Source: an uncultured Acidimicrobiaceae bacterium
Lineage (GTDB): Bacteria > Actinomycetota > Acidimicrobiia > Acidimicrobiales > RAAP-2
NCBI GenBank assembly: GCA_963756025.1
Contig: CAVWMF010000007.1
Span: 102,612-166,611 of the forward strand
Reading direction: 5' to 3'
Length of the DNA: 64,000 nucleotides
Shown here in pieces: positions 4,885 to 13,224 of the stretch. Within the stretch, counting starts at the first letter, position 1, and each line of letters starts with the position of its first letter. The notes beneath the pieces are model-generated. The model saw only the letters and a program-made list of their open reading frames with translations. It was not told the origin of the DNA and made no database searches. Position numbers and translations under genes: made by a program.

Positions 4885-5154
4885 TCATTCGTCGCTCTCG
4901 TGTACCAGCGGATACCGGAGTTCGAGGTGGACGTCGCTCCATTGCGCCGCGTGGGCAAGAGCGTCCCGCACGTACAGCTCCAAGACGGCGGCCGGCACCA
5001 GACATTCGGCACAGGCCTCGGGCCCAGCCTCCACGTTCAGCACCAGGGCCTCGGTGTCCGCACGCTCCACCTTCAATGCGTATCCGTCTGCGCTGAGCAT
5101 CGACGCCACCGACGCGATCGCCTCTTGCAGCGCAGCAATGTCCCCGATGGTCAC
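4885..5154 (-). CDS. small NifU-C-terminal-like CxxC protein
   Basis: 89 aa. The GTG start overlaps the upstream stop (GTGA) and GGAGGG lies upstream. 'ADGYALKVERADTEALVLNVEAGPEACAECLVP' resembles the NifU-like C-terminal domain pattern with a CxxC. Confidence 0.6.
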   Translation of the reverse strand: MTIGDIAALQEAIASVASMLSADGYALKVERADTEALVLNVEAGPEACAECLVPAAVLELYVRDALAHAAQWSDVHLELRYPLVHESDE

Positions 5155-6248
5155 GCCAACCCTCCGTTCGAGGCGGGACGGATCTTGCGAGACACAATCT
5201 CGAAAGACGAGGCATACGTCTGTATGTAGACGGGGAAGTTGCCGGCGGGGCCGCCACAGACCACCACGTGGATGTCTTCTGCGCTGCCGGCCACATTCAA
5301 GGTGGTCTCATTGTCCCCGGACTCGACAGCTCCTCCCCGCTCGAAGCGCCCGCCTATCTTCCATCCGTTCTCCTTGACCCAGGCCGTACTCCGACGCCCC
5401 CGTTCGTAGAGTGCCCGGCTTATGTCCGCTTTGGACCAACCAGCACGCACGAACATGGCGGCAGGTTCGGGCGGCACCAGCAAGATGCCGAACCCTCCCT
5501 CGGCGAGCCTTCCCGCTCCGACGAGATAGTGCGCCACCGAGGCGATCCAATCCTCAGGCGACTCCTCGGCATGGTTCGACAGCATGATGTGGGCGCCCAC
5601 AGCGAAGGCCGACACCACGCTGTCCAGTGGGTCAAATCCGCGCATGACGTGCAGCGGGATCAGCTCGGGGAATGCTTCTTCGTTCTCGACGATGTGGTAC
5701 GCCACGTATTTGGCCGGCTGGCCCATGGTGGACCGATCGAGGACCGGCCGGCCGTGCGCGGGCGTCGTGCCGCTGCCACCTACCGAGCCCAGCACGTTGA
5801 GTTGGATCAGCCGCAGGGCCCTACCGATGGAGGCATTGGCCCGATTTCCCGGACCCAGGACGTTCCCGTGGCAGTTCATGTCGAGGGTGTGACGAATCGG
5901 CCCGTTCACGACGAACCCCAGGGCAAGGCTGCCGGTCGATGAGCTCGCGGTGTGAATGTCGAACGCAGGTTCCAACATGCACTCGACGAGCGCGATCACC
6001 ACGGGCAGGTGCTCAGGCAGGCAGCCCGCCATGATCGAGTTGATCGCGACCTTTTCCACCGTGACCGGACGGTCCCTCAGGGCGTAATAGCCGATCTCCT
6101 CTGACAGTGGGCGCTGCGCCGCATCGGCGAACGCAGCCAGACGTGCTGCCGTCGGCGGGACGATTGGTAAGCCGTCGGTCCAGCCATTGCGGTGATAGAG
6201 CTCGACCGCTTCCTCCCAGTCGGCCACCTCGAGCAGACGGGAGTCCAT
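5151..6248 (-). CDS. conserved protein of unknown function (365 aa)
   Basis: Clean protein-like composition with an AGGAG RBS before ATG 6248. Motifs are NGWTDGLPIVPPT, SIMAGCLPEHLP and NRANASIGRALRL. I cannot place it in a named enzyme family. Confidence 0.8.
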   Translation of the reverse strand: MDSRLLEVADWEEAVELYHRNGWTDGLPIVPPTAARLAAFADAAQRPLSEEIGYYALRDRPVTVEKVAINSIMAGCLPEHLPVVIALVECMLEPAFDIHTASSSTGSLALGFVVNGPIRHTLDMNCHGNVLGPGNRANASIGRALRLIQLNVLGSVGGSGTTPAHGRPVLDRSTMGQPAKYVAYHIVENEEAFPELIPLHVMRGFDPLDSVVSAFAVGAHIMLSNHAEESPEDWIASVAHYLVGAGRLAEGGFGILLVPPEPAAMFVRAGWSKADISRALYERGRRSTAWVKENGWKIGGRFERGGAVESGDNETTLNVAGSAEDIHVVVCGGPAGNFPVYIQTYASSFEIVSRKIRPASNGGLA

Positions 6249-6274
6249 TTCTTGTCTCCTACCCGCGCTGCGGA

Positions 6275-6802
6275 CTAGTTCCGCGCGCGATGCCCGCCGA
6301 GCACGATCTCGTGGAATTGTTCGGCCGCCCGGCGCGCCCGATCCAACAGTTCATCGTCGCCCACACTCCCGATCGGATGCTCGACGACAGCCCACCTCAT
6401 CTCTTCCATGCCACTGAGCCCAGCCATGATCCGAACGGCGTCGAGAAACGGGGGTGTGCTGACCAGGAGGGTCGGGATACCACGCCTTTCCAGCTCGATG
6501 GCGTTGGCAATACCCGATGAGCTGCAAGCGCCGCAGTCCCCGTTGGCCAGAATGACGGCATCGCATCCGTCGATATCTCCCCACTCGTCTGGCGACATCA
6601 GCATCTGAGGATGGTAGGTGCCGCGGGTCACGACGAAGTCGTAGGTGCCATGGAGATCCTCGGCGATCAAATCCAAGAGTCGGGACGCATTGAGTTTCTG
6701 GTTGCTGAAGAGGCCGAGCGTCTTGCCGTCGAGGGTTTCGAGCCTTGCGGAGAGCTCGTACTTCGACCCCCTTGCCTCCTGAATCGGATCCAGTACCTGC
6801 AT
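6275..6802 (-). CDS. CxxC redox-type protein, possibly the Cys form of the 'UGSC family (seleno)protein' group
   Basis: Track ORF 6275..6829 starts at TTG. ATG 6802 with GAAAGG upstream is preferred and gives 175 aa. It has a mid-protein 'ILANGDCGACSSSGIANAIE'. The family assignment is from memory only. Confidence 0.6.
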   Translation of the reverse strand: MQVLDPIQEARGSKYELSARLETLDGKTLGLFSNQKLNASRLLDLIAEDLHGTYDFVVTRGTYHPQMLMSPDEWGDIDGCDAVILANGDCGACSSSGIANAIELERRGIPTLLVSTPPFLDAVRIMAGLSGMEEMRWAVVEHPIGSVGDDELLDRARRAAEQFHEIVLGGHRARN

Positions 6803-6880
6803 GTCGTGGCGCCTTTCGTCTTCCCTCAATGCAGCATATCCACTTTCGAATTGAGCTCGGGGGGCCTTCCCGCGTCCGGA

Positions 6881-8620
6881 CTAGGTTGATCCGGCAGCAG
6901 GAGGAGGAGGCGTCAGCACGCGGCCAGGCCGCTGGCGGTGCCCCAGGGGCACCGAATCCGACCCGGCGCGGATGACGGTGCCGTTGACGAGGACATGCTC
7001 GATGCCTGTGGGTGCGTCAGCGAGTAATCGTTCCCCGTCCGCCGGCATGTCAAAGGCGCGCCGGATGGGCCCCGGCGAAACCGTGTCTGCATCGAAGACG
7101 ACCAGATCGGCAAAATACCCTGGTTCCACCCGCCCTCTCCCCTCCAGACCCAGGAGCGCGGCGGGCTCGGCGGAAAGCTTGCGCACCGCCATTTCGAGGG
7201 GGATGGCCCCCCTGTCGCGGACCCATTGTCCGAGGAGATCCGTCGGCAGAACCGCATCGCACAGCTGCGCCGGATGGGCGCCCGCATCGGACAATCCGAG
7301 GACGCACCCCGGAGCGCCGAGAAGCCGCGCCACCTCCACTGGGTCGTCGTTGCCGAATTTCAGCTCGATACGGGTCTGCAGGACGTCAGCGATGCCAAGG
7401 TTCAAGAGCAACTCTGAAGGGTCGAGACCGCGCACGGAAGCCAGCACCGCCAGGTCCTTTCCGACGGAATCGGGCGATGTCGGGCTTTCCGTGATGGTCA
7501 CCTGATGCCAGGGCACCGCAACGCCACCGGGAATGGTGACTTCTTCACGAAACCGGCGACGCCAGGAGGGATCCGCAAAACGACCGAGCCGCTCTCCCAC
7601 CGAAGCACCGCCCAGCTCGGTGATGCATGCCGCTCGGAAGACCGAGGGCATAGCGAGCGAACACGCGCCGACCAGCGGGCGGCATGACACCTGGGGATAC
7701 ACCTCGGTACCGCTCTCGAGTGATTCGAGGTGCATGGCGAGCCGGTCCCTGTGGGAGCCGTTGGCCATCGCGAGAAGGGCGATCCACGTGAACGGACGTC
7801 CGATCTCCCGCTGGAATCCGTACACCCGCTCCAGGTCGAAATTTCCTCCGGGATTGAACATGGCAATACCTGTCCCGGCGGCGCCGAGCACCCGCAGGAG
7901 TGCCTCGGTCTCTGCGGTCGAGGCGTACTGGCTCGGAGACGGGCGGCTGCCAGGTTGTGTCTTGGTGGCAAACCCCACAGCGCCTGCGGCGAGGCCCTCC
8001 GCCACGAGCCTCTGCATCTGCGAGATTTCATCCGGGGTCGCCTCCCGTTCGAGGGCGGCGGGACCCATCGCGGCGAATCGGACCGTCGAGTGCCCGATGA
8101 AGGAGGCGAAGTTGAGCAGTGGGCGACGTGCAGCGACGGCGTCCAGATAGGCGGCAAAGGTCGGGACCTCGGCGGGCACGCCCGCGTCGAGAGTCTCGAT
8201 AGCCATGTCCTCGAGGTCACGCAGCATCTCGAGGACCATCTGGCGGTGCTCCCGGGCCACCGGCGCCAGGGAGAACCCGCAGTTCCCGTTGACCACGGTC
8301 GTCACACCATGGTGACAGGACGATGAGAGGTGGGGGTCCCAGAAGACCTGCGCGTCGTAGTGCGAATGGATGTCGATGAAACCGGGAGCGACGACTCTCC
8401 CTGTGGCATCGATCACGTGATCTGCCCCACCGGCCGACAAGCCTGAGCCGACGGCGACGATCCTGTCACCGTCGACGGCGACGTCCACCCTTTTCGCCGG
8501 CGCGCCTGTGCCGTCGATCACTTCACCGCCCGCAATCAGGATCTTCGACAGTTGAACACCCCCAGTTGCGCGACCGTGGCGGCACCTCGCCCTGCGGCAA
8601 GCGTAACAATTACCCGGCAT
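6881..8620 (-). CDS. N-acyl-D-amino-acid deacylase (D-aminoacylase)-like amidohydrolase
   Basis: The longest ORF is 6881..8758, but its first ~45-65 residues are Arg/Cys-rich junk reaching the divergent gene. The conserved core starts at SKILIAGGEVIDGTG. Motifs: GFIDIHSHYD (HxH) and VNGNCGFSLAP. The start is uncertain; ATG 8620 is the nearest. Confidence 0.85.
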   Translation of the reverse strand: MPGNCYACRRARCRHGRATGGVQLSKILIAGGEVIDGTGAPAKRVDVAVDGDRIVAVGSGLSAGGADHVIDATGRVVAPGFIDIHSHYDAQVFWDPHLSSSCHHGVTTVVNGNCGFSLAPVAREHRQMVLEMLRDLEDMAIETLDAGVPAEVPTFAAYLDAVAARRPLLNFASFIGHSTVRFAAMGPAALEREATPDEISQMQRLVAEGLAAGAVGFATKTQPGSRPSPSQYASTAETEALLRVLGAAGTGIAMFNPGGNFDLERVYGFQREIGRPFTWIALLAMANGSHRDRLAMHLESLESGTEVYPQVSCRPLVGACSLAMPSVFRAACITELGGASVGERLGRFADPSWRRRFREEVTIPGGVAVPWHQVTITESPTSPDSVGKDLAVLASVRGLDPSELLLNLGIADVLQTRIELKFGNDDPVEVARLLGAPGCVLGLSDAGAHPAQLCDAVLPTDLLGQWVRDRGAIPLEMAVRKLSAEPAALLGLEGRGRVEPGYFADLVVFDADTVSPGPIRRAFDMPADGERLLADAPTGIEHVLVNGTVIRAGSDSVPLGHRQRPGRVLTPPPPAAGST

Positions 8621-8756
8621 CAGAGGAGGACGTGCTGTCCAGGACACACAGGCCGACCGGGTGCGATGGACGGGACGGCGGCACACCGAGCCATAGGGAT
8701 ACCCTGGCCGCGGGTGCGATGTCCGTTCTGCCCGATCGCCCAGCTCAGGAGGACCC

Positions 8757-9851
8757 ATGCGTGAATTCAGCTTGATATCATCGGACTCCCACGTGAAAAT
8801 GCCGGACGAGGCGTGGCAGGAGTACCTGGACCCGCGATTCCGTGCTCAAGCTCCGAGGATCGAACGGACCGATGAGGGAGATTTTCGGGTGTTCGAAGGT
8901 CAGCGCAGCCCGATCCTCGCCCTCGACAACCTGGCAGGGAAGGCACCCGAGGAATTCTCTCTCAACGTTCGCAAACTCGATGAGCAGCGCCCAGGCGCTT
9001 GGGATCCGGCTGAACGCATCAAGGATATGGACCTCGACGGCTTGGACGCCGAGGTCCTCTTCTTCGGCGGCCCACTCGTCACGACCGATCAGGCGTTGCG
9101 TCTCAACAGCGTTCGCGGCTATCACCGGTGGCTCTCGGACTTCTGTTCCTACGCCCCTGACCGGCTCCTCGGCATGGCGGCAATTCCGATCGATACACCC
9201 GACATCGCGGCCGAAGAGGTCCACTTCGCGAAGGAAAGCGGGCTCGTCGGCGGAACGATCCCACTCTTTCCCTCTGAAGGAGACTATTCGGACCGGAAGT
9301 GGGACAAAATGTGGCACGCATTTCTCGACACGGGATTACCGATTGCCCTGCACACCGGGTCCCGACGTCCCGGCACACCGGGCGCCAACATCTACGACAG
9401 TTCAGCACGGTTCATGACCGGCCTGGTGATGAACAAGATGACGATGGCCGAGGCGGTCTCCGAACTCATCCACGGGTTGGTGATGCAGCGCTTTCCCGAT
9501 CTGAAATTTCTTGCTGTCGAGGCGCAGATCGGCTGGATCTCCTTCGTCCAGTACTACATGGACCACTTGTGGGAGAAGCACCGGTATTGGACGAAGAGCG
9601 AACTGCAGGAGCCACCGAGTACCTACTTCCACCGACAGGTTTTTGCCACCTTCATGGAGGATCCTGTGGGCCTCCGGGAGTACGAGCACATCGGCGTCGA
9701 CAACATCATGTGGGCCAGCGACTATCCACATTCGGAGACCACGTGGCCCGACTCGAAGAAGCTGACCGACGAGTGGATGAGGTCATTTCCGGACCTCGAC
9801 CGCGAGAAGATTCTTTGGCGGAACTGTGCCGGCCTCTTCGGCCTCTCCTGA
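8757..9851 (+). CDS. amidohydrolase-2 (PF04909-like) family protein
   Basis: 364 aa. Motifs: LISSDSHVKMPDEAW, IMWASDYPHSE. Confidence 0.9.
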   Translation: MREFSLISSDSHVKMPDEAWQEYLDPRFRAQAPRIERTDEGDFRVFEGQRSPILALDNLAGKAPEEFSLNVRKLDEQRPGAWDPAERIKDMDLDGLDAEVLFFGGPLVTTDQALRLNSVRGYHRWLSDFCSYAPDRLLGMAAIPIDTPDIAAEEVHFAKESGLVGGTIPLFPSEGDYSDRKWDKMWHAFLDTGLPIALHTGSRRPGTPGANIYDSSARFMTGLVMNKMTMAEAVSELIHGLVMQRFPDLKFLAVEAQIGWISFVQYYMDHLWEKHRYWTKSELQEPPSTYFHRQVFATFMEDPVGLREYEHIGVDNIMWASDYPHSETTWPDSKKLTDEWMRSFPDLDREKILWRNCAGLFGLS

Positions 9852-9863
9852 TCCCGTCCAGGC

Positions 9864-10329
9864 TCAGGAGCCCGCCATTGGCAACTTGTGTGGGGGCCAC
9901 TTCTCCGGCGGATCCACGTAATCCGTCTTGTAGAACGTGTGGGCGCGAAAATCCGCGATGGAGGCGCCCTCGGGTCCGGCCCAGAACGAGTACGGCGTGC
10001 CGGCGGTGCGATAGACGCCCTCGCCCGCCTTCAGCACTCGATTTCCGTGGTGCACTTCGCCCTCGATGATGAATTCTGATGTAATCCACGTCATGGCGAT
10101 GGGTGGGCAGGAGTGTGCCGGGAGCCAATGTCACGATGGTCAGGCTCAACCCGTCGGTCTCGGGATTGGAGACCATGACCTTGCGCCCGGCGCGCCCGGC
10201 GAAATACGCCATCCCGCCCGGGGACCGGCTGCCACCGGTGGGATCGGGATCGAGCGGAGCGATTTTCTCGTCTTCCGAGCTGTGTCGCACATCGAAAAAC
10301 ACAGAGCGGTGTTTCTTGGGCGTCTCCAT
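9864..10329 (-). pseudogene. cupin-domain protein interrupted by a 1-nt frame change near 10085..10095
   Basis: ATG 10329 has a strong RBS (GGAGAGAGGGAA) and reads METPKKHRSVFFDV...LTIVTLAPGTLLPTHRHD in one frame. The cupin continues (TSEFIIEGEVHHGNRVLKAGEGVYRTAGTPYSF) in track ORF 9864..10094, one frame over. Track ORF 9706..10428 is a chimera of the real N-terminus plus out-of-frame text. Confidence 0.55.
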
Positions 10330-10360
10330 CGTTGCGTTCCCTCTCTCCGTCAAATTGCGA

Positions 10361-12076
10361 CTATCGGTCACGGACTGTGGTGTTGCCGGTCTGCCGTCCT
10401 GAGCGCAGCACGATCCCGGGCGCATCACCGGTGGGCTTACCGTCGGTCAGCACCTGAATGCCGTTGACCAGCACGGTCTTGACCCCGATGGGGTCGGCCA
10501 GCAGGCGCTTGTTGTCGCCGGGCAGGTCGAAAGCCGTCCGGGTCGGCGACGATCCCACCGTCTCAGGGTCGAAGAGGACCAGGTCGGCCTGGTAGCCCTC
10601 GGCGACCCGGCCGCGGCCGGTGAGACCGAACAAGCGGGCCGGAACATCACTCATCAGCTGGACCGCCTTCGCCATGCTCACCAGGCGGCGGCCCCGAAGA
10701 CAGTCGGCAAGAAATCTCGTAGGGTAGGCCGAGCCGAGCATGCGATCGAGGTGGGCCCCGGCATCCGAGCCGCCCAAGAGCACGTCGGGATCCCCCCACA
10801 GGTCCTGACGCAGCTTCCAATCCGCATCGCTGTCGGCACCTGGCAGCGGCCACAGCACCGTGCGCAACTCGTCTGCGGCGACGATGTCCACGATCGTCGT
10901 GAAGGGATCTTCGCCCCTCTCCGCGGCGATCTCCCCCACGACCCGGTTGCGATAGGGCTCGTTCACCTCACTGAAGACATCACCGATCATGTAGTTGGAG
11001 AAGTCGGACATGCGCTCGAGGATCGACCCCTTGGCCGATGCCAACATGGACGCCCTGACCTCCGGGTCGCGCAAGCGGCGGATCCGCTCAGGCACCTCCA
11101 CATTCAAAACGTCCCGCCAACCGGGGAGAATCCACATGGCGCAGTACGTGAGGAAACTCATGTTCTGGTCGGCGAAGATCGGCATGGTCAGCGCCACCAC
11201 CCGGCCGCCCGTCTCCCGGGCCCTTCGTGAAGGCCCGAGCTGGTGCTCGACGCGGTCGGCGTCGGCGGCGCTCGCAGCGAGCACATTCCAGTTGAGCGGA
11301 CTGTCGGCCAAAGAGCTCATCCTGGCCAGGAATTCGACTTCATGCTCATTGAACCGGCCGATACACCCCTCGGTGATCAACTCCAGGGAGGTCCCCTCCC
11401 GGTCAGCGAGCACCTCACAAAGGCGGAGCAACTCCACCTCGGACGCCCACCGGCTCGGCACCGGTTGACCGTCGCCGTCGATATGGGTCGACGACCGCGA
11501 CGTCGACAGGCCGAGCCCGCCCGCGTCGACCGATTGTTCGAAGAGCGCGACAATCCGCTCGAGTTCCTCGGGCGTCGCTTCCCTGCCGAAATCTTCCCCC
11601 ATGACGAACCTCCGCAACGCGGAATGCCCCACCATGAAGCCGGCGTTCACGGCGATCGCACCATCCAACGCATCCAGGTACTCCCCGAAGGACTCCCAAT
11701 TCCACGGCACCCCAAGCTCGAGCGCGGTCAACGGCATACCTTCGACCTGGGCCATCATCCGCCGTGTGTAGTCCGCGTCCCGCTCTCTCAGGGGGGCCAG
11801 CGTGAATCCACAGTTCCCCCCGATCACCGTCGTCACACCGTGCCAGATCGACGGGGTAGCCAATGGATCCCAGAACAGTTGTGCGTCGTAGTGCGTGTGA
11901 GGATCGACGAAGCCCGGGCTGACCACGAGCCCGTCCGCCTCGATCCGCGCCGCGGCCGGTTCGTCGATCGACCCGACCGCGACCACCCGCCCCTCGTGCA
12001 CGGCGACGTCCGCCTTTACCGGTTCTGACCCGGTACCGTCGACGACCAAGCCACCCGCGATCACCACATCGACCAT
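10361..12076 (-). CDS. D-aminoacylase-like amidohydrolase
   Basis: Track ORF runs to 12121. ATG 12076 (AAGGGGG upstream, downstream of the preceding stop) gives MVDVVIAGGLVVDGTG. Motifs: GFVDPHTHYD, GGNCGFTLAP. Confidence 0.9.
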   Translation of the reverse strand: MVDVVIAGGLVVDGTGSEPVKADVAVHEGRVVAVGSIDEPAAARIEADGLVVSPGFVDPHTHYDAQLFWDPLATPSIWHGVTTVIGGNCGFTLAPLRERDADYTRRMMAQVEGMPLTALELGVPWNWESFGEYLDALDGAIAVNAGFMVGHSALRRFVMGEDFGREATPEELERIVALFEQSVDAGGLGLSTSRSSTHIDGDGQPVPSRWASEVELLRLCEVLADREGTSLELITEGCIGRFNEHEVEFLARMSSLADSPLNWNVLAASAADADRVEHQLGPSRRARETGGRVVALTMPIFADQNMSFLTYCAMWILPGWRDVLNVEVPERIRRLRDPEVRASMLASAKGSILERMSDFSNYMIGDVFSEVNEPYRNRVVGEIAAERGEDPFTTIVDIVAADELRTVLWPLPGADSDADWKLRQDLWGDPDVLLGGSDAGAHLDRMLGSAYPTRFLADCLRGRRLVSMAKAVQLMSDVPARLFGLTGRGRVAEGYQADLVLFDPETVGSSPTRTAFDLPGDNKRLLADPIGVKTVLVNGIQVLTDGKPTGDAPGIVLRSGRQTGNTTVRDR

Positions 12077-12090
12077 GCCCGTAAACCCCC

Positions 12091-13224
12091 TTATGACGAG
12101 ACTGACTCTGCCCGCGTACAACTCCAGTTGAAAAGGTACTCGGCATTGCGCACCGTGATCATCTCGGCCTCATCGGCGGGAATGTCGGCGAACAGCTCAT
12201 CCACGATCTTCTGCGTGTTCGGCCACACGCAGCTGGAGTGCGGGTAGTCACACTCCCACAGGATGCGATCGATGCCGATGTCATGGCGGACCCGGAGGCC
12301 ATACGGCTCCTCGATCAAGCAGAACCACATGTTTCTCCGGCAGACGTCGGATGGGAGCACATCGTCGGTGCCGCTCCAGTACTTATGCCGCTTGTACATT
12401 CGGTCAGCGCGCTCGAGGGCACCGGGCACCCAGTTGATCCCACCCTCGGAGTAGACGATCTTGATGTCGGGGAATTTGCGGGGCACCGGGCTGTACATCA
12501 TCCCCAGAGCGTGCGTGATGGTCGGCACGAACCCGAGAGCAACCATCAAACTGGGGTTCGACTCAGGCGGCGTATACGGTCGCCAACCGCTGGAACCGAT
12601 GTGCATGCAGACGGCCGTCCCCGATTGCTCGCAGATGTCCCATACCGGATCCCAGAAGCTGTCGTAGTAGGAGGGCAAGCCCAAGAGACTCGTCTCTTCG
12701 GGGATGGTGATCGCCCGCAGACCCTTCTCCAGATTCCTCTCGATCTCCTTCACGGCGAGACCGGCGTCCCACAGCTGAACGATGGCCATCGGTATGAACA
12801 TGTCCGGAGCGGCTGCGCACCACTCGTCGAGCATGAAGTCGTTCCACGCCTTCACGCAGACGTCGGCCAGCTCACGGTCTTTGAGCTCGGGGAAGAGGGC
12901 TCCCCCGAATCGGGGAAGCGTCGGAAAATTGAGGCTCGCCATGATCCCCTCCGCCCGCAGATCCGCCGCGCGAGCGTTGGGGTCGTAACAGCCGGGAATC
13001 ATGTCGGAGAAGCGGACAGGATCGAAACTCCAATCCTCTTCAGGCTTCCCGGCGACTGCATTCAGACCGATCGTCGGCATCTTCGTTCCTTCGACGACCC
13101 AGAACTCCATCTCACCGTCGTCGATCACATGGGGGGCGTCCTCCAGAAACTTTCGTGGCACCCGCTTGGACCAGACGTCGGCCGGCTCGACGATGTGATC
13201 GTCAGCACTGAAGAGTGTTCTCAT
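12091..13224 (-). CDS. amidohydrolase-2 (PF04909-like) family protein
   Basis: Track ORF runs to 13263. ATG 13224 is preceded by GGAGGAAACAGA. Motifs: MRTLFSADDHIVEPADVW, AWNDFMLDEW, WECDYPHS. Confidence 0.9.
   Translation of the reverse strand: MRTLFSADDHIVEPADVWSKRVPRKFLEDAPHVIDDGEMEFWVVEGTKMPTIGLNAVAGKPEEDWSFDPVRFSDMIPGCYDPNARAADLRAEGIMASLNFPTLPRFGGALFPELKDRELADVCVKAWNDFMLDEWCAAAPDMFIPMAIVQLWDAGLAVKEIERNLEKGLRAITIPEETSLLGLPSYYDSFWDPVWDICEQSGTAVCMHIGSSGWRPYTPPESNPSLMVALGFVPTITHALGMMYSPVPRKFPDIKIVYSEGGINWVPGALERADRMYKRHKYWSGTDDVLPSDVCRRNMWFCLIEEPYGLRVRHDIGIDRILWECDYPHSSCVWPNTQKIVDELFADIPADEAEMITVRNAEYLFNWSCTRAESVSS

Follow-up and report, generated by a model that had tools for sequence, protein, structure and literature searches.

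The window analysed here is a 64,000-nucleotide (nt) stretch of contig CAVWMF010000007.1 (assembly GCA_963756025.1; uncultured Acidimicrobiaceae bacterium; G+C content 64.6%), and it carries on its minus strand a three-gene operon that probably encodes, in all-cysteine form, a thiol/selenol-dependent reductase of several subunits. Such an enzyme, a (seleno)cysteine-dependent reductase, would consist of a catalytic and a redox subunit together with an electron-relay module that is interchangeable. The first of the three open reading frames (ORFs), ORF-1 (6275..6802, counted from the first letter of the window), encodes a Cys-type UGSC-family protein of 175 amino acids (aa) from its ATG, proposed as the small redox subunit. 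ORF-2 (5151..6248) encodes a 365-aa protein of an unnamed family, proposed as the catalytic or substrate-binding subunit and partner of UGSC, and ORF-3 (4885..5154; GTG start) encodes an 89-aa protein with a predicted NifU/Nfu C-terminal fold and a CxxC motif, proposed as an electron or dithiol relay. The window holds one copy of each gene, and the closest named relatives are metagenome-assembled genomes (MAGs) of Actinomycetota.

A preliminary description of this DNA, made from its letters alone, had put the three genes forward as one cassette that might recur across taxa. We followed them in 80 genome loci with 83 ORF-2 copies in varied phyla, including Dehalococcoidia and other Chloroflexota, Rokubacteria/Methylomirabilota, Burkholderiales, Actinomycetota (Acidimicrobiia), Binatia, SAR202, SAR324, and others. 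A UGSC gene lies on the same strand within 600 nt of ORF-2 in 70 of the 83 copies (median gap 73 nt), downstream in 57 cases and upstream in 13. Because the pair recurs to this extent across phyla and is also found as natural fusions, its arrangement is not a matter of chance. Co-occurrence thus holds for the pair but not for ORF-3, which is confined to a single clade and turned up in just one of the 80 loci, 3 kb away. In these neighborhoods, the conserved unit is the ORF-2/UGSC pair rather than the trio, with UGSC having a near-obligate partner. In the closer Cys-type clade the gene order is UGSC followed by ORF-2, and ORF-3 is separate in locus L084, fused in L085 and in the P0055 locus, and absent in L083. 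Sequence clustering of 482 neighbor ORFs gave no conserved third gene, and a Pfam census of the 127 nearest neighbors gave no family with more than three members. The flanking genes vary, and include catabolic genes, transporters, and LysR, AraC or IclR regulators.

Two or three paralogous ORF-2/UGSC pairs occur per 13-kb locus in L019, L020, L021, L040, L042, and L073. The second ORF-2 copy in L019-L021 and L040 has A-G-A or A-G-G in place of a conserved A-G-C motif, and tandem ORF2-ORF2 proteins of ~710 aa are also found (P0253, P0257, P0260, and P0264); such Cys-less second copies and tandem proteins hint at hetero-oligomers with one Cys-less subunit. A MAG labelled Nitrosopumilus sp. (L072, CAXQPB010000052.1, 5998-7578) carries ORF-2 followed by a UGSC gene with an in-frame TGA and a bacterial-type in-frame hairpin, which suggests mis-binning or horizontal transfer behind the archaeal label. 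A Sec-type (selenocysteine-type) ORF-2 then UGSC pair is also present in a cultured isolate, Sheuella amnicola NBD-18 (L037, NZ_JAAGRN010000009.1, 6004-7570).

Gene fusions define the company that ORF-2 keeps. Among the 148 best family representatives are 22 UGSC-ORF2, 3 ORF2-UGSC, 8 tandem ORF2, and 3 ORF2-ORF3 proteins, and in many cases an N-terminal extension of 75-100 aa is the half of UGSC that follows the Sec. The remaining domains fused to ORF-2 are all thiol-redox modules. The catalytic chain of ferredoxin:thioredoxin reductase (FTR-β; FeThRed_B) is N-terminal in P0355, with its CPC/CPC/CHC motifs intact, and C-terminal in P0283, in the slot taken by ORF-3 in the window. AhpC-TSA/Redoxin domains are fused to ORF-2 in P0299, P0339, and P0392, Thioredoxin_8 in P0352 (CPTC), and a Pyr_redox_2 fragment in P0251. 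Together with UGSC itself, these partners strongly back the idea, already raised in the preliminary description, of a thiol/disulfide redox module. In L086 and L087 a Sec-type UGSC gene is directly followed by an FTRβ-ORF2 fusion, which repeats the three-part logic of the window with a different third part.

The same description had suggested that orthologs of ORF-1 might carry an in-frame TGA at the first Cys together with a selenocysteine insertion sequence (SECIS), and this is what we found. At the codon aligned with C90 of ORF-1, all 78 UGSC genes located beside ORF-2 have TGA (uGSC in 69, uGGC in 5, and uGAC in 4), and their reading frame is open and conserved on both sides of it. The TGA is followed, 13 nt downstream, by a hairpin of 9 bp whose apical A-G-U hardly varies. 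Its pairing holds in 86.9% of cells, vs. 18-51% when the 3' partner is slid, and its 40 double-sided changes (for example, C-G to G-C in 13 sequences, none unpaired) were matched by none of 500 shuffles, with the reservation that coding constraints and the relatedness of the sequences inflate these covariation statistics. Even so, the position and shape of this SECIS-like hairpin are those of a bacterial SECIS. ORF-1 in the window has a TGC (Cys) codon, and no such hairpin was found in it. In the GOS data, 255 Sec members of UGSC were counted vs. 21 Cys members (PMC2398784), and the window therefore represents the minority, all-Cys version.

Many Sec-type UGSC proteins carry a longer motif, U-x-x-C-x-x-C, whose third Cys is present in 35 of 75 members and absent from the window protein. 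After the Sec, they show a protein motif S-S-C-S-V-H-D (with variants) that is encoded by the SECIS hairpin itself (L003-L082, e.g., L008 7074-7592; L086 970-1518), so that part of this amino-acid conservation is probably an RNA constraint; the Cys-type proteins resembling that of the window have S-S-S-G-I-A-N at the same stretch. The TGA also affects annotation, as gene callers split Sec-type UGSC genes or truncate them there; in L086, for example, the calls are two fragments, 91 and 83 aa long (970-1245 and 1267-1518). Such split calls probably explain why only 162 UGSC proteins were retrieved, vs. more than 2,957 for ORF-2, and leave UGSC badly under-represented in protein databases. Many ORF-2 entries that seem to have an extra 80-100 aa at the N-terminus are in fact UGSC-ORF2 fusions that contain Sec.

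The earlier assignment of ORF-1 to the Cys form of UGSC stands on the Pfam model PF24696 (E 1.3e-40, 139.8 bits against a cut-off of 25), which aligns residues 2-167 of ORF-1 to profile positions 1-170 of 172. The stricter NCBIfam equivalog NF041046 does not accept it (107.2 bits, under the 125-bit cut-off); the best of 66 Cys-type relatives reached E 5.4e-34 with this model. The redox motif C90-G-A-C93 within NGDCGACSSSG (6524..6535, minus strand; C90 at 6535..6533 and C93 at 6526..6524) aligns with uGSC, uGAC, and uGGC in 75 distant homologs, in which U90-G91-x-C93 is universal. An AlphaFold2 model of ORF-1 (pLDDT 89, pTM 0.86) is a three-layer α/β sandwich, whose nearest solved structures are WrbA, a flavodiiron flavodoxin domain, and a GH3 C-terminal domain (template modelling (TM) scores ~0.4-0.5). 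Modelling thus predicts a flavodoxin-like rather than a thioredoxin fold for ORF-1. A thioredoxin-like fold was suggested as likely for UGSC in 2008 (PMC2398784), which is not supported here since no thioredoxin-fold protein is among the top 50 structure matches of the model. In the model, C90-G-A-C93 stands at the N-terminus of helix 91-106, directly after strand 82-86, a placement typical of redox-active CxxC motifs.

UGSC also resembles, at this site, the selenoprotein B subunits of Stickland reductases. Weak matches to GrdB (glycine reductase selenoprotein B) were obtained with all 66 UGSC relatives scanned (best E 7e-5), to PrdB with 64 of them (best E 1.7e-5), and to GrdF with 62. These matches always cover about residues 78-118, some 40 residues around the redox site, and align them with the Sec region of the models (GrdB 336-372 and PrdB 137-176). 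The number of residues that follow is also similar, as ORF-1 has 85 after C90 and the GrdB and PrdB models have about 84 and 89 positions remaining past the aligned site. ORF-1 itself scores 15.8, 13.6, and 12.2 bits with TIGR01917, TIGR04483, and TIGR01918, whose cut-offs are 602, 300, and 65. From this local likeness we infer, without regarding it as proven, that UGSC is a minimal relative of the selenoprotein B domain that bears the Sec.

The large partner, ORF-2, belongs to a family that counts 6,325 clusters (50% identity) at an E-value limit of 1e-3 and 1,459 at a limit of 1e-30; more than 2,957 matches were obtained in a 90%-clustered database and at least 592 matching stretches in reference genomes. 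ORF-2 had been said to match no enzyme family that could be named, and we likewise found no match to a curated family or solved structure by sequence: ORF-2 itself has none in Pfam or NCBIfam nor, by phmmer, in the PDB, profiles built from 36 and from 68 family members retrieved nothing from the PDB, and scans of 75 and 68 individual relatives gave no consistent family. Terminase_5 was considered and rejected, as its helix-turn-helix match covers only a three-helix element (residues 263-297) and defines no function; 16 of the 75 relatives scanned give this match (best E 3.3e-5; in the window 5358-5462, GWSKADISRALYERGRRSTAWVKENGW), and the element is probably structural. PRK13799 matches in 2 of 68 relatives (E about 0.01) look like chance. 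The two ORF-2 motifs quoted earlier, NGWTDGLPIVPPT and NRANASIGRALRL, are present in its translation.

Conservation within the family is nevertheless pronounced at a few positions. Across 84 ORF-2 homologs of 34-51% identity, the conserved residues are GWTDGLPxxP, A74-G75-C76, G116-P117, R136, G142-R143, N151, and E188. The signature, which in the window reads GWTDGLPIVPPT (residues 22-33; 6150..6185, minus strand), has G22, W23, D25, G26, L27, P28, and P31 at 95% conservation or more, and GWTDGLPxxP served as a family-specific search pattern. C76, in the A74-G75-C76 motif (6021..6029, minus strand), is the only conserved cysteine of the family; it is present in 80 of the 84 distant homologs, and AGC is invariant in 57 long architectures. 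Its loss shows no correlation with the absence of UGSC. For a structural view we used the natural ORF2-ORF3 fusion P0008, which is 70% identical to ORF-2 and models well (pLDDT 91.6, pTM 0.83). The best PDB match of its ORF-2 body in Foldseek is the α-subunit of a class I fumarate hydratase (7xky_A; E 3.5e-4, probability 0.89). We rejected this as the fold of ORF-2, given TM scores of 0.25/0.34 and one conserved Cys in place of three ligands, and likewise rejected a "Toblerone-fold" assignment, for which the match was weak.

For ORF-3, the earlier proposal of a NifU C-terminal-like domain survives as a fold and not as a sequence family. ORF-3 itself has no match in Pfam, NifU (PF01106) included, at E up to 1, and of 75 family members only 3, all of them fused homologs, gave a PF01106 match, below threshold (best 18.5 bits against a cut-off of 27, E 0.0023). 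The fold was tested on the homologous domain of P0008, for which Foldseek returned 2z51, 2m5o, 2jnv, 1th5, 1xhj, and 1veh (probability 0.96-1.0, target TM 0.37-0.65), including CnfU (2z51), the C-terminal domain of human NFU1 (2m5o), and that of a rice NifU-like protein; ORF-3 is accordingly predicted to have a NifU/Nfu C-terminal fold. Its motif C48-A-E-C51 in EACAECLVP (5002..5013, minus strand; C48 at 5013..5011 and C51 at 5004..5002) belongs to an A-C-x-x-C-L-V-P that is invariant in 41 family members. The domain occurs as a C-terminal fusion in about 39 of the 120 closest ORF-2 homologs, and free-standing copies are rare (five clusters). Given how common the fusion is, the overlap of ORF-2 and ORF-3 in the window is the split form of it. 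ORF-3 is an accessory of one clade, and in other lineages different redox domains take its place.

We therefore propose the following working scheme for the reductase. ORF-2 would be the large subunit and would bind the substrate, probably a small organic anion, within a pocket predicted to be lined by D25, R136, R143, N151, and E188, with C76 nearby. ORF-1 would be the flavodoxin-fold redox subunit, presenting C90-x-x-C93 (Sec-x-x-Cys in most relatives) at the N-terminus of a helix. C90, or Sec, may attack the bound substrate or an adduct on Cys76 of ORF-2, and C93 would then resolve the intermediate, leaving a disulfide or selenenylsulfide. The NifU-fold CxxC protein ORF-3 would return the reducing equivalents, a role that elsewhere may be filled by FTR-β, thioredoxin-like, or AhpC-like domains fused to ORF-2. 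We infer that the proteins form a physical complex, which way the electrons flow, what Cys76 does, and what kind of substrate is bound; the family memberships, folds, synteny, fusions, Sec recoding, and conserved residues are as described above. The paralogous pairs per locus, the tandem ORF2 forms, and the variable catabolic flanks count for enzyme-like behavior. Several points weigh against this scheme. ORF-2 has no recognizable catalytic fold (its match to 7xky_A superposes with a root-mean-square deviation (rmsd) of 15.9 Å), and 13 of the 83 ORF-2 copies have no UGSC gene nearby. The proximity of C76 and C90 and the ORF-2/UGSC interface are predictions. Four of the 84 copies have Ala or Gly at the Cys76 position and still stand beside a Sec-type UGSC gene, so that this Cys is not indispensable. 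The likeness to GrdB and PrdB is local and sub-threshold, and the fold of ORF-3 is that of an Fe-S carrier, so that it may hold a cluster rather than act as a dithiol.

Among the other explanations, the one that survives best, though we consider it unlikely, is a general antioxidant or thiol-homeostasis system, i.e., a peroxidase, sulfoxide reductase, or protein-disulfide reductase instead of a substrate-specific catabolic reductase. The AhpC-TSA/Redoxin and thioredoxin-like fusions fit this, and the selenoproteins of aerobic aquatic bacteria are mostly thiol oxidoreductases (PMC2398784). Of the five close loci inspected, three also have a CMD/AhpD-like gene (PF02627, itself a CxxC or CxxU redox family) no more than a few kb from the module (L001 7624-7869, L085 9972-10607, and the P0055 locus 1057-1782), which could be chance. 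Such a role sits less easily with several divergent paralogous pairs per locus and genome, with the placement of the pair in variable catabolic operons that have transporters and LysR, AraC, or IclR regulators, and with the Arg-rich conserved pocket residues of ORF-2, which better fit a diversified family of substrate-specific enzymes.

We regard as improbable a second possibility, that of a pyruvoyl-type reductase like PrdA/PrdB or GrdE/GrdB, in which an ORF-2 proenzyme would cleave itself at G75|C76 (cysteinolysis), its N-terminal pyruvoyl group would bind an amine, and the Sec or Cys of UGSC would reductively cleave the C-N bond. The sole conserved Cys of ORF-2 follows an invariant Gly, and the A-G-C motif resembles the Gly|Ser sites at which PanD and phosphatidylserine decarboxylase are cleaved. 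Further, the redox site of UGSC resembles that of GrdB and PrdB, PrdA/PrdB combines a processed catalytic subunit, with a pyruvoyl derived from Cys, with a small U-x-x-C selenoprotein (PMC11229817), and the amidohydrolases encoded next to the module could release amines or amino acids. However, ORF-2 does not match the Gly_reductase, PrdA, or GrdE models, even when 75 and 68 relatives were scanned at E up to 10 and 5, and A-G-C lies between two helices of a confident model rather than in a strained β-turn. The motif reads A-G-A or A-G-G in four ORF-2 copies that pair with a Sec-type UGSC, and no PrdH-like gene recurs nearby. PrdH was also considered as an analog of ORF-3 and set aside; it is described as a dimer with R32 as key residue, and a CxxC is not mentioned.

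Least probable is an Fe-S enzyme, with ORF-2 as distant kin of class I fumarate hydratase, a hydro-lyase-type [4Fe-4S] cluster held by C76 of ORF-2 and C90 and C93 of UGSC, and ORF-3 as a dedicated Nfu-like cluster carrier: the best PDB fold matches of ORF-2 (7xky_A), the Nfu-type fold of ORF-3, the U-x-x-C-x-x-C of many Sec-type proteins, and the Fe-S nature of the fused FTR-β domains speak for it, but the TM scores are only 0.25-0.34 with an rmsd of about 16 Å, ORF-2 has no three-Cys ligand set, the third UGSC Cys is neither general nor present in the window protein, U-x-x-C is a classic redox motif and we know of no precedent for Sec as an Fe-S ligand, the thioredoxin-like and AhpC-like fusion partners carry no cluster, and most loci lack ORF-3.

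The layout of the operon in the window agrees with the preliminary description in its three minus-strand ORFs, 26-nt gap, GTGA overlap, and three Shine-Dalgarno sites. For ORF-1, a TTG at 6829 would give a protein of 184 aa, and the ATG at 6802 is favored because of the N-termini of its homologs (MxxxxLDPVQEP) and an exact database match of 175 aa (P0121). The 26 nt separate its TAG stop (6277..6275) from the ATG of ORF-2 (6248), and in the GTGA overlap (5151..5154) the GTG of ORF-3 (5154..5152) runs over the TGA of ORF-2 (5153..5151), which may couple the two genes translationally. The ribosome-binding sites are GAAAGG at 6817..6812 (9 nt before the ATG) for ORF-1, AGGAG at 6260..6256 (7 nt before the start) for ORF-2, and GGAGGG at 5165..5160 (5 nt before the start) for ORF-3. 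No promoter-like or terminator-like site was found inside the operon, no tRNA gene (tRNA-Sec included) was found in the window, and none of the three proteins matched a PADLOC defense model at E up to 0.1.

Upstream, an amidohydrolase-superfamily gene (6881..8620, minus strand; Pfam Amidohydro_3) ends 78 nt from the ATG of ORF-1. Its start is ambiguous (8620, or 8758 for a 625-aa ORF), and its NCBIfam matches are generic and all below cut-off. No terminator-like site was found between it and ORF-1, and it is possibly co-transcribed with the module; it does not recur at other loci and hence is not a conserved part of it. This gene belongs to a cluster (6881-12121) of Amidohydro_3, Amidohydro_2, a small cupin-like ORF, and Amidohydro_3 that flanks the module and is syntenic in a related Actinomycetota contig (L083, 9283-13690). 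Three further Amidohydro_2 genes and a CMD gene lie just beyond the window start (L001).

Of the known systems, the selenoprotein B reductases of Stickland metabolism, D-proline reductase (PrdA/PrdB) and the reductases for glycine, sarcosine, and betaine (GrdE with GrdB, GrdF, or GrdH), are the closest in design. Like UGSC, their selenoprotein B is a small-to-medium U-x-x-C subunit with a TGA-encoded Sec and a SECIS, its large catalytic partner is a separate protein from an adjacent gene, and its oxidized Se-S center is re-reduced by a thiol-redox partner, as proposed for our module. Nevertheless, UGSC is shorter (175 aa, vs. ~240 for PrdB and ~430 for GrdB), and the hosts of the UGSC module are mostly aerobic soil and aquatic bacteria, whereas Stickland hosts are amino-acid-fermenting anaerobes. 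The window module is also Cys throughout, unlike the Sec-bearing Stickland enzymes. As UGSC scores far under the family cut-offs and ORF-2 has no detectable relation to PrdA or GrdE, the module is not a member of the PrdA/PrdB or GrdE/GrdB families, and we rate it as a thiol/selenol reductase whose redox site is like that of selenoprotein B but whose catalytic subunit is new. With the published UGSC family (PF24696, NF041046) ORF-1 shares the position of its motif, and it differs in its minority Cys form, its score below the NF041046 cut-off, and its flavodoxin-like model. With the NifU/Nfu C-terminal domain (PF01106) ORF-3 shares the α/β fold, the CxxC before a helix, and the size (~70-90 aa); its A-C-x-x-C-L-V-P is not the Nfu consensus, its sequence score is sub-threshold, and unlike NifU/Nfu it is fused or apparently translationally coupled to ORF-2 and not found in Fe-S assembly contexts. 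A precedent for redox chemistry on a flavodoxin-like fold is the Staphylococcus aureus pI258 ArsC of the low-molecular-weight protein tyrosine phosphatase type, a flavodoxin-like α/β protein in which a cysteine relay ends in a disulfide that is reduced by thioredoxin. This ArsC is a single-subunit enzyme without an ORF-2-like partner, and we found no sequence or specific fold match between it and ORF-1.

UGSC-containing proteins entered the lists of selenoprotein families around 2005-2008 (Zhang and Gladyshev), and were still listed as uncharacterized in 2022 and 2026 reviews (2026: PMC13188914). Few selenoproteins are more abundant in ocean and freshwater metagenomes (PMC2398784, PMC13188914). 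A "UGSC/Unknown_1" fusion was noted in 2008 (PMC2398784), in which Unknown_1 may be ORF-2. In the literature we found no description of the near-obligate pairing, the size of the ORF-2 family, a flavodoxin-like fold of UGSC, its link to the GrdB/PrdB redox site, or the interchangeable Nfu, FTR-β, and thioredoxin modules. The module is hence not wholly undescribed, as the UGSC family and a fusion of it were already on record, though neither had been characterized.

Since gene callers split or truncate the Sec-type UGSC genes, the UGSC-ORF2 module is systematically under-annotated. What had been an orphan selenoprotein becomes, with its partners, a defined two- or three-component enzyme open to expression and assay: the all-Cys version in the window can be produced in Escherichia coli without selenocysteine machinery, and S. 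amnicola NBD-18 offers a practical host for genetics and 75Se labelling. More tentatively, and with somewhat less than even confidence, we suggest that ORF-2 and UGSC together may form an unrecognized, widespread class of (seleno)cysteine-dependent reductases, an aerobic-world counterpart of the Stickland selenoprotein-B reductases with a new catalytic fold, many substrate-specific paralogs, and interchangeable electron-input modules (Nfu-like, FTR-β, and thioredoxin-like). If true, one of the most abundant selenoprotein families of aquatic habitats, uncharacterized for ~20 years, would thereby gain a function and a partner.

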